Positions 609 through 63,447 of a stretch of DNA of 64,000 bases are shown piece by piece. Under the pieces are notes generated by a model, which ran no database searches, had not been told where the DNA came from, and saw only the letters and a list, made by a program, of their open reading frames with translations. Within the stretch, counting starts at the first letter, position 1; every line of letters starts with the position of its first letter. Origin of the DNA: Eledone cirrhosa (taxonomy: Eukaryota); NCBI GenBank assembly GCA_964016885.1, contig OZ024740.1, forward strand, positions 402,938,001 to 403,002,000, given 5' to 3'. Position numbers and translations under genes: made by a program.

Positions 609-653
609 GTGACGAAACATAAGTCAATTGCATGAACTCATAATCCTTTATTT

Positions 654-709
654 ACTGCTATATATATTTCGATGATAGCCATTGAATGGCTATGACCTCA
701 TCAGGCAGT
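654..709 (-). ncRNA. Minimal type I hammerhead ribozyme in a TA-flanked cassette (609-772)
   Basis: Minus strand: ACTGC-CTGATGA-GGTCATAGCCATTCAATGGCTATCATC-GAAA-TATATA-TA-GCAGT; stem I ACTGC/GCAGT, long stem II, palindromic stem III. Confidence 0.85.
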
Positions 710-828
710 TAGTCAGTTCTTAGATATGCCACCTCTGTGTTTATGGTATTAATGGTATCAGAGCCTTGGGACATATATATATATATATATATATATATAT
801 ATATATATATATATATATATATACATAT

Positions 829-1814
829 ATAGTAGAATAATCGAGTATCGAAAAATCGGCGCACGAGTTCACGATAAACAAAATTCGATATGAGCGGCAG
901 AGTGCTCCATAATTTAAATAAATCAGAGCTATAACTATCGTTAAAATACCGTCACACACAGAACAAGTCTATAATCAACCGCACGATCGAAAATTTGCGA
1001 TCTGGAAGATTCGGGACACTCAGATAAAAAATCTCAATAAATCAATAAATTAAATGAATGTAAAAAGCATACCCGGACCCGCTAGGAAGATGTTAAATCT
1101 AGCTTCTTGGGTTTCTGTAAATCCTTAAACTGTTCTCTATCAGCTCACATAAAAATATATAAGACTTCTAGATATCAGCGGACAGGAAATTTACTTCTTC
1201 AACGAGCTTTGTCCAAACGAATGAAATGGCATAACCCAAGCTAAATACGCACATGGAATTCGGCAAGGGAGATAACCTCTACATCCGCGAAAACTATTCG
1301 GGAAAATGTGGAAATACACATATCGAATAAGAGTGCTCAATAGACATGTTAAAATAAACAGAAGCTATTCATCACTTAATAGAATAGACAAAAAATGAAC
1401 AATAAAATTAACTGGTCAATAGCTATGTCTAGAGCTAAATATAGTAGAATAATCGAGTATCGAAAAATCGGCGCACGAGTTCACGATAAACAAAATTCGA
1501 TATGAGCGGCAGAGTGCTCCATAATTTAGATAAATCAGAGCTATAACTATCGTTAAAATACCGTCACGCACAGAACAAGTCTATAATCAACCGCACGATC
1601 GAAAATTTGCGATCCGGAAGATTCGGGACACTCAGATAAAAAATCTCAATAAATCAATAAATTAAATGAATGTAAAAAGCATACCCGGACCCGCTAGGGT
1701 GATGTTAAATCTAGCTTCTTGGGTTTCTGTAAATCCTTAAACTGTTCTCTATCAGCTCACATAAAAATATATAAGACTTCTAGATATCAGCGGACAGGAA
1801 ATTTACTTCTTCAA
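829..1814 (-). mobile_element. Non-coding 612-bp tandem unit (about 1.6 copies), retrozyme-like, between TA tracts
   Basis: agtagaataatcgagtatcg at 831 and 1443, copies nearly identical; contains an HHR. Confidence 0.8.
1071..1207 (-). ncRNA. Large type I hammerhead with extended stems II and III and a UUGAAGA core
   Basis: GCTCG-TTGAAGA-AGTAAATTTCCT...AGGATTTACA-GAAA-CCC..GCTAG..CTAGC-GGG-TC-CGGGT; the second copy (1683-1814) stops at the core. Confidence 0.65.
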
Positions 1815-1902
1815 AGAGACATATATATATATATATATAAAAGACGTAAAATAAGAAAATTTAAAAAAAATTTTAAAAAAAATTAACTTACTTAAATTTT
1901 CA

Positions 1903-1982
1903 CTCCAACTAATTAGTTTCTTCAATGGGATAAAGACAGTTACGTAATGAACTGTTGAGAATTTCATTGCGTCATCAGGGAG
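1903..1982 (-). ncRNA. Type I hammerhead, extended stem II
   Basis: CTCC-CTGATGA-CGCAATG...CATTGAA-GAAA-CTAATTAG-TT-GGAG; stem III is the palindrome CTAATTAG. Confidence 0.8.
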
Positions 1983-59399: not shown

Positions 59400-60215
59400 A
59401 GATATTTTGTAAGTAAGTTAACTTTTAAAATTTTCTTAATTTACGTCATTCATATAATTGTTCTGCATCCCCTTGCATTGAACCACAAAGTTACTAAATT
59501 TGCCAAAACTGCTACTATAGTTCATAGTAGTGGCTCGGCTACTGTCTTTTTAACACCCCACTCCTCACTGATTAATCTCGATGTTACGTGATTGATTCTT
59601 TTGAATTTGCCACCGACCAAGTAGGCAGTATTTTTTTCAATGTCTTGGAATTTAGTCCACGCTTGCTTTTTTTCCATCCACTGAATTATTTTTGTATAAG
59701 TTCCCTGTGTCCACGCATCGCCAGGTATCTTAGCTGAGAACAGACTTCCTGATAACGAAACGGCTTCTCCATGCTTTCCATTTGGAAACCATGTTTATTC
59801 CCTTTCAGAAACTAATTAGTTGGAGTGAAATTTTAGTAAGTTAATTTTTAAAATTCACTTATTTTACGTCATTCATATAATTGTTCTGCATCCCCTTGCA
59901 TTGAATCACAAAGTTACTAAGGCAAAACCTATATATTTGCTAGCATAGGTATGCATCTGTATATATATGTTGGTAGATATACTAATTCTTTATAATTATC
60001 TCCAAATTATTTTGTTGAGCAAAAATTTGCCAAAACTGCTACTATAGTTCATAGCAGGCTTGGCTAGTGTCTTTTTATCACCCGTTTAACGAAACGGCTT
60101 CTCCATGCTTTCCATTTGGAAACCATGTTTATTCCCTTTCAGAAACTAATTAGTTGGATTGAAATTTTAGTAAGTAAATTAATTTTTAAAATTTTCTTAT
60201 TTTACGTCATTCATA
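59400..60215 (+). mobile_element. Tandem copies of the 8268-type unit with internal deletions; HHR at 59744-59826 (CTGATAA core)
   Basis: ACTTC-CTGATAA-CGAAACGG...CCCTTTCA-GAAA-CTAATTAG-TT-GGAGT; partial copy at about 60088-60158. Confidence 0.75.
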
Positions 60216-60249
60216 TATATATATATATATATATATATATATATATATA

Positions 60250-60890
60250 TATAAGTATGTACACGTACATACATATATGTATACAGACTTACAGTAGTAT
60301 GTATATATATATACATACATGCACACATATATATATGTACGTATGGATTCACCGAGCATTTATTATAATGCTCGGTGTGTTTGTAAACAAATATCCCGAA
60401 TTAAGCCGTACAGTGTCTAGCAACCATCGTTGCTCATCTGTTCAGCACTGACAAAGGAACGCTGTACTAGTTTCATGCTTATTAGCTATCGTCAGCAACG
60501 TATACCTTCCTGCCAGATTGTTGAACGAATGTACTTACCTTATGCATGTTAATGGCTGAGTAGCCCAATTTGCATATCGAGTAGGTTAATCGGCCGGGTG
60601 CACCGAAAACGATAAACGGAAAAAATGAAACGAAATTTCATTTCCCACTCTTAGTACGGCTGTTACTTAAATATAAGTATGTACACGTACATACATATAT
60701 GTATACAGACGTACAGTAGTATGTATATATATATACATACATGCACACATATATATATATGTACGTATGGATTCACCGAACATTTATTATAATGCTCGGT
60801 GTATTTGCAAACAAACATCCCGAATTTAGCCGTACAGTGTCTAGCAACCATCGTTGCTCATTTGTTCAACACTGTTGAACAAACGTATAT
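60250..60890 (-). mobile_element. Second locus of the ~421-bp retrozyme-like unit (about 1.5 copies); HHR at 60460-60500
   Basis: High identity to 35228-36853; CGTTG-CTGACGA..GAAA-CTAG-TA-CAGCG. Confidence 0.85.
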
Positions 60891-62964
60891 AATATATACA
60901 CCTTACTTTCTTCTTCTTGCTTTTCCCTTTCTTTTTCCTTTTTTCTCTACCTCCTTCTTTCAGCCTCACGTCACTATCGTTGCTATAAAAAGCACTGTAT
61001 CTTCTACTCGTCACATAAAATTCTATATGTACCTGTTATGGCCTACTTGCTGTAAGTTATTGTTTTGTTTTGTTTTTTACTTCACGGATAGATTTTTGGC
61101 TTGTGTCAGACGCTGTGAACCCAGGTGGACCAACAGTACCATTGGTATGGATCCAAATACCAAAGTCCATTCGACGGTTGAAGATCTTGGAGTATTGTTT
61201 TCCTTTTTTTTAATTAAAAGAAAGTTTAAGGTTTTCCATTTAAAAACATTTTTCTTTTGTTCTGCCTTGTTTTCGTTCGTTTTCTCCTCTTTGTTAATTT
61301 TCCTATATATATATTCGCTTCTGTCATTCACTCAGTTTTTCCTCTTCTCCTCTATCTCAATTAATCAATAATCCTTTTTCATGTTTATATTTGCCGTCGG
61401 GTATTCATTAACCTTACTATTATACCCCAAGAGAGAAGGTGAGAGTCTGGAATGGGATTCGTTTTACTTAAGGATAAGAAAATCAGTGTTCATTTTTTTT
61501 CTAGCCCACCCATCAACTAATATTTGACCTTAGATACGTGAAACGAACATAACTAGTTAAATCCTTTAGTAATATCTCTAAACGAAGATTGTCTTCAAAA
61601 CCACTCCTACTGCCATTGACATTATTTTTACCTACTCTAAGTTTTAAAAATCCTCCGCACCTCCCAATTTTTGATACCTCCAATACAATCATCGCCATAA
61701 CTGCTATTGCTGGTACAATCACTACCACTGCCTCTACTACGATTATTTCAGTCACAATAGCCCTTTTCTATGATAAGCAACAAACATTGTTATAAGCCCA
61801 ACATCGACACTACTAACAACAGCAATGCTATTAACAACACATCCCCTGACTTTCTTTGATGCCGAAACTTCGACAAAAGATGTATAATAATATTAAAAAC
61901 AAGAGGGAAGATACGTTGACAACATAGGTTGGAAAAAGAGCAGCGAGCAATAAACGACGTATAAGAAGGTGGGATGAGAGTTGTGATGCAGTCACACAGA
62001 TAAAATCTAGAAGGAGGTGTGGTAAAAACGAAAAGAAAAAAAAACAACAAAGCATATAACGATAAAGTTAAGGAAGTAGTGGTAGGGATGGATTTTAACC
62101 GCGGCCAGCTTTTCTTACTCCCTCCCTCCGTCTTTCAGTTAGCTATCCCAGGACATTAGAATTACTCAGCTGTGGTGTATAGTAGACAGGTCAGCGTGGT
62201 TTTACTCGTGGATACTTAATATCAGTTCTCGTGTGAGGGGGGGGGGGGATTAAGGAAGAGAGATACAAAGAAAATAATGAAAAAAAAAGATTGAAAAGTA
62301 AAAGAAAATCAAACAATAAAAGAAAAATAAAGATTACAAAGTAGTAAAAATTGAGAGAAGAAAAAAAGGAAGAAAAATGAAAGCTAGTCACTTAGATGGA
62401 TTCCATTGTTAAAGGGACACTTGCTGAGGCGATCATTACAATTGCTAAAGGCTCTTAAAACCCTGCTTATTCTCAAAAGCCTTCTTATACCAGGTATCAA
62501 TTTTCAAAGCTACAATCCAACGTACGCACATATACATACACACACATACACACACACACACATACACACACACTCACACAAACATCATCATCAACATCTA
62601 CACCAGCACCATGGTAAATGCTCACACACCGAAACCAACACTACCACTGTATACACGAACGTACACATACATACATATACCATACACATTAGAGTACGCA
62701 TAAACAAAGTCTTTGAAAGTAGGATTAGTCACTTTTCATATATATATTATATATATAGGAAAAAGTATGACCCCGATGGCAGAGCTCAAGCCGTTTCGAC
62801 GGCTATTTCTGGACTACTACCCACTCTACTACCCTAAGTATTGAGTACTGTGGTGCGTTATGGTCCATCTGGTTCCTTACCGCAATTCCTTTGTTATATA
62901 TATATGTATATATATATATGTGTGTGTGTGTGTGTTTGTTTGTTTGTGTGTGTGTGTGTGTGTG

Positions 62965-63168
62965 TGAGTCTTGGTTTCAATCGGGGGTAACCTCAGTTAG
63001 GAAGATACTCAATATTTTAGAGGTTTGTAAACATTAGGATTAATATAGAAATGGCTTCTACAGGACTAGAACTGTTTCATTCAAAATCACCAGGAAAGGT
63101 TTCCTGATGATTTACTATGAATAAAACAGTTCTAGTCCTGTAGAAGCCATTTCTATGTTAAACTTGAT
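62965..63168. mobile_element. Back-to-back inverted pair of hammerheads (63053-63099 -, 63098-63148 +), 25636 family
   Basis: One copy has a CTGGTGA core, the other has AAAA for GAAA; stem III CAG/CTG and stem I conserved. Confidence 0.7.
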
Positions 63169-63447
63169 ATATATATATATATATATATATATATATATAT
63201 ATATATATATATATATATATATATATATATATATGGAAACGAGTAGGACCCCGACGGCTGAGCTCAAGCCGTTTCGACGGCTAATTCTGGACTAAATTTA
63301 GTCCAGAATTAGCCGTCGAAACGGCTTGAGCTCAGCCGTCGGGGTCCTACTCGTTCCTATTACCCACTCTACTACCCTAAGTATTGAGTACTTTGGTGCG
63401 TTATGGTCCATCTGGTTCCTTACCATATTTCCTTCGTTATATATATA

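Follow-up and report, generated by a model that had tools for sequence, protein, structure and literature searches.

Why so many hammerhead ribozymes (HHRs) stand beside TA microsatellites, and which mobile elements brought them there, is the question raised by a 64,000-nucleotide stretch of Eledone cirrhosa DNA (GenBank assembly GCA_964016885.1, contig OZ024740.1, positions 402,938,001 to 403,002,000 of the forward strand; hereafter the window). The window has a GC content of 35% and contains 133 TA tracts of at least six repeats, in a genome assembly of 3.0 Gb; its repeats appear to be like those of an octopod. Comparison with fetched loci indicates, with a probability that we consider high, that the hammerheads mark the 3' ends of Penelope-like elements (PLEs) and of retrozymes likely pasted into TA microsatellites by PLE enzymes, and that one family has the permuted type-SGC order and a predicted kink-turn (k-turn). 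The PLE/retrozyme concept is already in print (PMC4209133, PMC7229834, bioRxiv 10.64898/2026.07.22.740005, PMC8557442). An initial sequence-only reading of the window had proposed a large community of ribozyme-bearing parasites; the community is real, consists of known kinds of element at an unusual scale, and was overstated in its number of hammerheads and in the share of islands that carry them.

The window contains 15 type I hammerheads with intact cores (CUGANGA, GAAA, UH, and stems I to III in type I order; descriptor score of at least 18), whereas 12 controls made by dinucleotide-shuffling 300-bp blocks average 0.0, and a stricter type I scan yields six matches compared to 0.03-0.07 in shuffles. 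All 13 hammerheads singled out by that reading are among the complete type I motifs, with every core segment and three helices. When 294 hammerheads taken from fetched loci were mapped onto the window, 56 matches resulted, which were sorted by hand into 15 intact motifs, 12 damaged near-complete motifs, 16 5'-truncated half copies, one permuted copy, and 12 that were dropped as flank, hairpin or weak matches. The early estimate of about 30 hammerheads is borne out only if damaged copies are included (27), the intact ones alone numbering 15. They belong to about 17 families on both strands (15 when two related pairs are merged), in keeping with the earlier count of more than a dozen, which overlooked the permuted copy on the minus strand at 46877-46945. 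The claim that most short unique islands fold into hammerheads does not hold: among 60 TA-flanked islands of at most 1.2 kb, 10 carry an intact motif, 20 an intact or damaged motif, and 27 any piece of one. Eight of the 15 intact motifs have a stem III that is perfectly palindromic. Rfam models at the gathering threshold have no match in the window, and descriptors of type II and type III hammerheads, applied to about 1 Mb, returned only weak alternative readings of type I matches.

The same class of motif abounds genome-wide. Forty evenly spaced 10-kb samples contain 50 intact motifs and two shuffles of them none, which extrapolates to about 375,000 in the genome; the window has about twice the sampled density. 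The pattern CUGANGA-8 to 35-GAAA, to which the helices are external, has 540,359 genome matches versus 184,898 for its reversed control, an excess of 355,461. The shuffle scans and this excess refute the view that AT-rich repeats match the motif by chance, for which the weak folding energies of the monomers alone would speak, and which we regard as having next to no probability. Some 350,000 motifs in 3 Gb exceed the published counts consulted (126,247 in axolotl, >6000 in a coral and about 5000 in a mussel; PMC7229834), the motif class itself being known. The open literature yielded no census of cephalopod hammerheads, with the qualification that subscription papers and the supplement of a 2026 preprint might bear on novelty; the main text of PMC13282606 contains neither "hammerhead" nor "ribozyme".

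The proposed association with TA tracts is confirmed but one-sided. A tract of at least six TA repeats lies within 300 bp downstream of 14 of the 15 intact window motifs (mean 4.4 and maximum 11 in 1000 random placements), but within 300 bp upstream of only three. The genome samples agree, with such a tract downstream of 41 of the 50 motifs (null 16.2) and no motif at all in the eight samples that lack TA tracts. The first tract follows the motif at a family-specific distance, 40-59 nt in 30 of 38 copies of family A, 120-129 nt in 33 of 41 copies of family I and 160-189 nt in all 15 copies of family H, as counted in loci partly fetched by using these ends within the query. The insertions end beyond the predicted cut site, and therefore the template would have been uncut, multimeric or circular RNA, which agrees with internal initiation and with the dispensability of HHR cleavage for one PLE in vitro (PMC11167929). 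In family A (609-772 and loci L002-L030), most of the best-matching copies begin at the same internal ATAT beside a TA tract, which suggests microhomology-guided 5' truncation, with a bias due to the query.

Three of the families run into open reading frames (ORFs) of the kind that defines endonuclease-bearing PLEs, a single ORF with reverse transcriptase (RT) and C-terminal GIY-YIG domains: family G (714 aa), family A and family C. The window copy of family G (52812..56683, minus strand) is a 5'-truncated Hydra-like PLE, collinear with the 714-aa element and composed of an RT piece (55888-56652), an endonuclease piece (55384-55815), a low-complexity 3' untranslated region (UTR) and a pseudo-long terminal repeat (pLTR) with an HHR at 52852-52912. 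This type of HHR occurs in all 14 fetched family G loci, and in eight of them it lies both upstream and downstream of the ORF encoding RT and GIY-YIG, so that HHR-bearing pLTRs flank the ORF; inverted 5'-truncated arms occur in the window. The RT piece has 43,177 first-look candidates in the genome, of which the 149 scored are 90-100% identical, many of them in open frames of 714 aa. Aligned by eye, the protein follows Hydra-1_Obim, for which a (TA)n preference and an HHR are listed (Craig et al. 2021, PMC8557442), with collinear RT motifs, and on this by-eye comparison it is a candidate member of the Hydra clade. An earlier guess that family G belongs to Neptune was dropped upon this comparison.

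Family A is represented in the window by the 164-bp 3' end of an autonomous PLE (609..772, minus strand; type I HHR 654-709), which has 40 other matches of about 98% identity and 543 candidates; 7 of 30 loci extend upstream, and in L061 a GIY-YIG ORF lies on the same strand about 1.3 kb upstream. Family C (7042..8061, minus strand) is a 5'-truncated PLE with an inverted 5' arm (7955-8060), in which the motif (7254-7298) lies downstream of a GIY-YIG ORF within the window itself (7499-7957; PF01541, E 9.9e-5). A DNA search with its 3' end gave no match, probably because common words were skipped, and a homolog search gave no informative names. As judged from these sequences, at least the families of motifs 654, 7254 and 52852 are 3' ends of autonomous PLEs, not parasites, and on this point the earlier description requires correction.

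Three other families fit the retrozyme part of that description, forming arrays of ORF-less tandem units with one type I HHR each. Family F (25842..26949, both strands) is a two-armed insertion of a 466-bp retrozyme unit with HHRs at 26063-26107 (minus) and 26610-26654 (plus); elsewhere its units form head-to-tail arrays in opposed arms, with 15 + 4 units in locus L436. The number of differences between two family F units is 1.3 for the 105 pairs within an arm, 1.5 for the 51 pairs from opposed arms of the same locus and 4.3 for the 390 pairs from different loci, most pairs stemming from L436; the likeness of the arms fits a single event in which both were copied from one template. The same array behavior is seen in families B (530 bp) and I (about 424 bp). 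Family B is present as a partial dimer of subfamily B1 (1839..2570, minus strand; type I HHRs 1903-1982 and 2455-2534) and as a 530-bp ORF-less tandem unit of B2 with an inverted arm (8268..8951, minus strand; damaged HHR 8316-8398), other damaged B2 hammerheads being located at 59744 and 60089; family I is present as a two-armed array (35228..36859) with an intact HHR at 35918-35960 (minus) and damaged ones at 35499 and 36609, and as a second intact copy at 60459-60501.

Families D (14514..14760, minus strand; HHR 14645-14709, with a relative on the plus strand at 34675-34740), E (25398..25765, plus strand; HHR 25636-25681, with damaged relatives at 41457, 63055 and 63101), H (34136..34460, minus strand; HHR 34300-34425, with a stem II region of 93 nt) and J (57476..58548, plus strand; HHR 58457-58503, with an inverted half copy at 57614) have 0.4-1.4 kb in common among their copies. 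The loci examined revealed no RT/GIY-YIG ORF belonging to families B, D, E, F, H, I or J or to the permuted family. Families H, J and D do have PLE ORFs nearby, but these were rejected as parents, since the stretch in between does not recur in other copies.

An alternative is that all motifs are truncated pLTR or 3' UTR ends of autonomous PLEs, with arrays due to local duplication and no independent retrozymes. This is true of families A, C and G; a 2026 preprint (bioRxiv 10.64898/2026.07.22.740005) proposes that PLE ends are amplified locally; and the parents of D, E, H and J may simply be unsampled. Against it, families B, F and I and the permuted family consist of dispersed ORF-less head-to-tail units that are 93-99% identical, and the opposed arms of one family F insertion are as similar as units within an arm. 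We consider it improbable as an account of all families. The preferred reading, that retrozymes exist alongside PLE ends and share the enzymes of PLEs, derives from the anatomy of the insertions (fixed 3' ends in TA, inverted 5' arms), and the copying of retrozymes by PLE enzymes is a published hypothesis (PMC7229834, bioRxiv 10.64898/2026.07.22.740005). The shared machinery invoked by the sequence-only reading is thus consistent with anatomy and lacks a direct sequence link to the ORF-less families. Contigs from two sequencing runs of unknown kind span a repeat unit and its junction, and are uninformative about expression.

According to the proposed mechanism, a GIY-YIG/RT protein that cuts (TA)n, probably supplied by the abundant Hydra-like element, would prime reverse transcription within an RNA that is uncut, multimeric or circular, in many cases from both ends of the DNA. 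The majority of copies are 5'-truncated, which leaves short hammerhead islands, and dense clusters would arise as new insertions land in the TA of earlier ones. Because stem III is palindromic in many motifs, these would cut as dimers.

The island at 46877-46945 (minus strand) differs from the others in that GAAA is upstream of CUGAUGA. It is a 5'-truncated copy that retains the cleavage dinucleotide, stem I, the GAAA block and the CUGAUGA block, is missing the upstream strands, and would be inactive. In complete relatives, with a unit length of about 115 nt (for instance L239:1511-1622, minus strand), the order is cleavage site/stem I, then GAAA/stem III, then stem I/CUGAUGA, which is the order of type SGC, previously known from metatranscriptomes only, the genomes of known organisms having yielded none (Eckert et al. 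2023, PMC10085705). A descriptor of this form has 21 matches in 1.2 Mb, two of them unrelated-looking, compared to 0, 0 and 1 in shuffles; a pattern of 34 places has 23,828 genome matches versus 74 for its control, to which a sister pattern adds 2,120 versus 304. The permuted motif is carried by tandem units of about 470-720 bp that have no ORF and end in TA, some with inverted arms; within one subfamily the units are about 96% identical. A short 3' fragment at 190-252 (plus strand) resembles the tail of a permuted subfamily (L273).

A model of 34 pairs in 29 rows, scored on its own source sequences, with rows that are related and hand-picked so that the figures are not probabilities, has 89.2% of cells paired (79.4% in shuffles, 31-48% in slid controls) and 116 double changes (32.5 in shuffles); double-sided changes occur in six of seven stem I pairs and two of five stem III pairs, indicating covariation of stems I and III, and further pair types are no more numerous than in shuffles (77/500). 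RNAfold recovers the non-crossing helices of the fold (z -2.2). Kink-turns consist of a 3-nt bulge followed by tandem G-A and A-G pairs between two helices. In the 53 of 66 distinct copies that passed a filter for the cleavage block and for stem I, one strand of the turn having been set by the search pattern, stem III extends through a 3-nt bulge, an A-G pair (51/53), a G-A pair (45/53) and a helix of six pairs (43-50/53 paired), and so is predicted to hold a k-turn. The six-pair helix runs directly into stem I; with stem III folded back by the k-turn, its strand would pass straight into stem I. As far as was found, the permuted family appears from its sequence to be a variant of a known ribozyme form that is unreported in animals: the open literature yielded no report of the fold in animals, with the proviso that novelty may also depend on subscription papers and on the supplements to Eckert et al. 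A metagenome scan with the permuted pattern, which was too loose, gave 120 loci, none of which passed the descriptor.

The permuted family might instead be a type II or type III junction across neighboring tandem units, or a noncatalytic protein-binding structure with core-like letters. Its units are tandem; stem II has one direct pair (48/53), after which the next positions pair directly in 1-3 of 53 copies and with an upstream strand in 44-48, the strands of stem II being swapped with upstream segments around a hairpin; and the regular stem II and the stem I-II interaction helix of Eckert's HRIMA-1-type SGC motif are absent. In the window copy the truncation is no cleavage scar, as the base 5' to the predicted cut site is still present. 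On the other side, CUGANGA, GAAA and U16.1-A15.1 are invariant across subfamilies (partly imposed by the search pattern), the 23-nt spacing of GAAA to CUGAUGA and the k-turn are kept in divergent subfamilies, and both recur in the single-copy ends of Naiad_Obim and Naiad_Ovul, whose consensus has no neighboring unit. We regard such a junction or binding structure as rather unlikely, and favor a permuted hammerhead within one unit.

The Naiad ends also bear on the origin of the family. Naiad PLEs are described as having no canonical HHR, with half cores ("HHR_half_core") flagged in some, including Naiad_Ovul (PMC8557442), yet the consensus ends of Naiad_Obim and Naiad_Ovul, compared by eye, have the same helices, k-turn and spacing as the permuted family; no permuted-type end was seen in Naiad_Omin, the third octopus entry listed alongside them. 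The Naiad-type RT motif occurs in this genome in five places, all decayed, as counted with a motif that may miss diverged copies, and no permuted motif lies beside these five matches. Likewise, no ORF with N-terminal GIY-YIG and RT was found upstream of permuted motifs within the 1.5-kb flanks of the fetched loci. That the permuted repeats are young and their Naiad parents apparently dead suggests that another clade, probably the Hydra-like element, did the copying. We lean towards the view that some 24,000 copies of an active permuted hammerhead with a pseudoknot closed by the k-turn represent the "missing" ribozyme of Naiads, which would have survived, after the decay of its Naiad parents, in repeats copied by a living PLE clade.

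Several observations weigh against the reading preferred here. RNAfold predicts weak monomer folds (z -0.5 to -2.1) in which stem III is mostly unseen; one PLE inserted in vitro without HHR cleavage, as noted above, and eight of nine Xenopus retrozyme dimers failed to cleave (bioRxiv 10.64898/2026.07.22.740005). No sequence links any ORF-less family to a given PLE, and families D, E, H and J have neither a link to an ORF nor more than a little tandem structure in the loci examined. As for the permuted family, stem II is irregular, the pairing model was scored on the sequences that gave rise to it, and two tandem units could assemble the fold between them, with no pseudoknot needed.

The remaining hammerhead remnants of the window belong to smaller families. 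Family G2 (33559..33759, plus strand) has an HHR at 33659-33732 and an inverted half copy at 33582; family L (37991..38345, plus strand) has a damaged HHR at 38190 and an inverted half copy at 38039; and family M is a damaged minimal HHR (12990..13045, minus strand). Family N is present as a half copy (11606..11760, minus strand), with further copies at 24338 and 47414, and has a fixed U4-to-A core variant, CAGAAGA replacing CUGANGA in 11 of the 17 relatives counted. Family K consists of mirrored half hammerheads at 63238 and 63296 (63235..63437) and nine further half copies (12767, 12843, 41562, 46367, 46418, 47349, 54489, 59362 and 62764); its full copies have CUGAGAA or UUGANAA (U3-A8) cores, and most copies are mirrored and break off within stem II. 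A degenerate inverted pair at 12015-12276, without a relative among the fetched loci, has arms that jointly suggest another decayed hammerhead family, and mirrored TA-flanked islands without a recognizable hammerhead (33824-33965, 63452-63670 and 37257-37441) are possibly PLE-type insertions truncated below the motif. A TA-flanked direct repeat of 612 bp (823-1820), 98% identical, has no hammerhead that could be found.

Other kinds of element share the window. An intact-looking ORF of 388 aa (2683-3849, plus strand) has no Pfam match and presumably resembles a DNA-transposon transposase. Two tandem, partly broken copies of an L1/Tx1-like long interspersed nuclear element (LINE), with endonuclease and RT, occupy 14831-19417 (minus strand); RTE-like LINE fragments abut TA tracts at 26993-27567, 31566-32578 and 39550-39792, and others lie at 9350-9909 and 58663-59243. 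An abundant family of about 200 bp that resembles short interspersed nuclear elements is found at 4536-5043, 13660-13891, 21187-22033, 42905-43154, 51139-51930 and 56820-57046, with several copies in inverted pairs.

Comparison with known systems places the type I motifs within a known class, which they extend at a record-like scale. Like the minimal HHRs of PLE pLTRs (Cervera and de la Peña 2014, PMC4209133), they are of type I with a short palindromic stem III, comprise many divergent families per genome and include a U3-A8 core variant (here among relatives of family K), but they are far more numerous, and many (families B and H) have long inserts in stem II. The Hydra-like element shares with Hydra-1_Obim (PMC8557442) a C-terminal GIY-YIG domain, a (TA)n preference and an HHR near the 3' end, and differs in having clear pLTRs and many intact 714-aa ORFs. 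The ORF-less families resemble the non-LTR retrozymes of animals (PMC7229834; bioRxiv 10.64898/2026.07.22.740005) in consisting of tandem units of a few hundred bases with one type I HHR per unit, in a genome that also holds PLEs, whereas here the units are embedded in (TA)n, their 3' ends are fixed and their arms inverted; the fixed ends and two-armed arrays offer a direct route to testing whether PLE enzymes copy retrozymes. With respect to Naiad PLEs, for which no canonical HHR is reported (PMC8557442), only decayed Naiad-like RT remnants were found in the genome studied here, and if the permuted ends are ribozymes, the statement that Naiads have no hammerhead would be overturned. Finally, the permuted family has in common with type-SGC HRIMA-1 (PMC10085705) the S-G-C order, the full core, covarying stems I and III and a linker of about 3 nt between stems I and II. 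HRIMA-1 has a stem I-II helix; the approximately 24,000 copies in this animal genome have a predicted k-turn and an extra helix in stem III, and their stem II is interrupted by a junction from which an upstream hairpin arises. If correctly interpreted, the family would extend the range of non-circularly permuted ribozymes from environmental RNA to the chromosomes of animals, and its k-turn would answer the distance problem left open by Eckert et al. (PMC10085705) for such folds.

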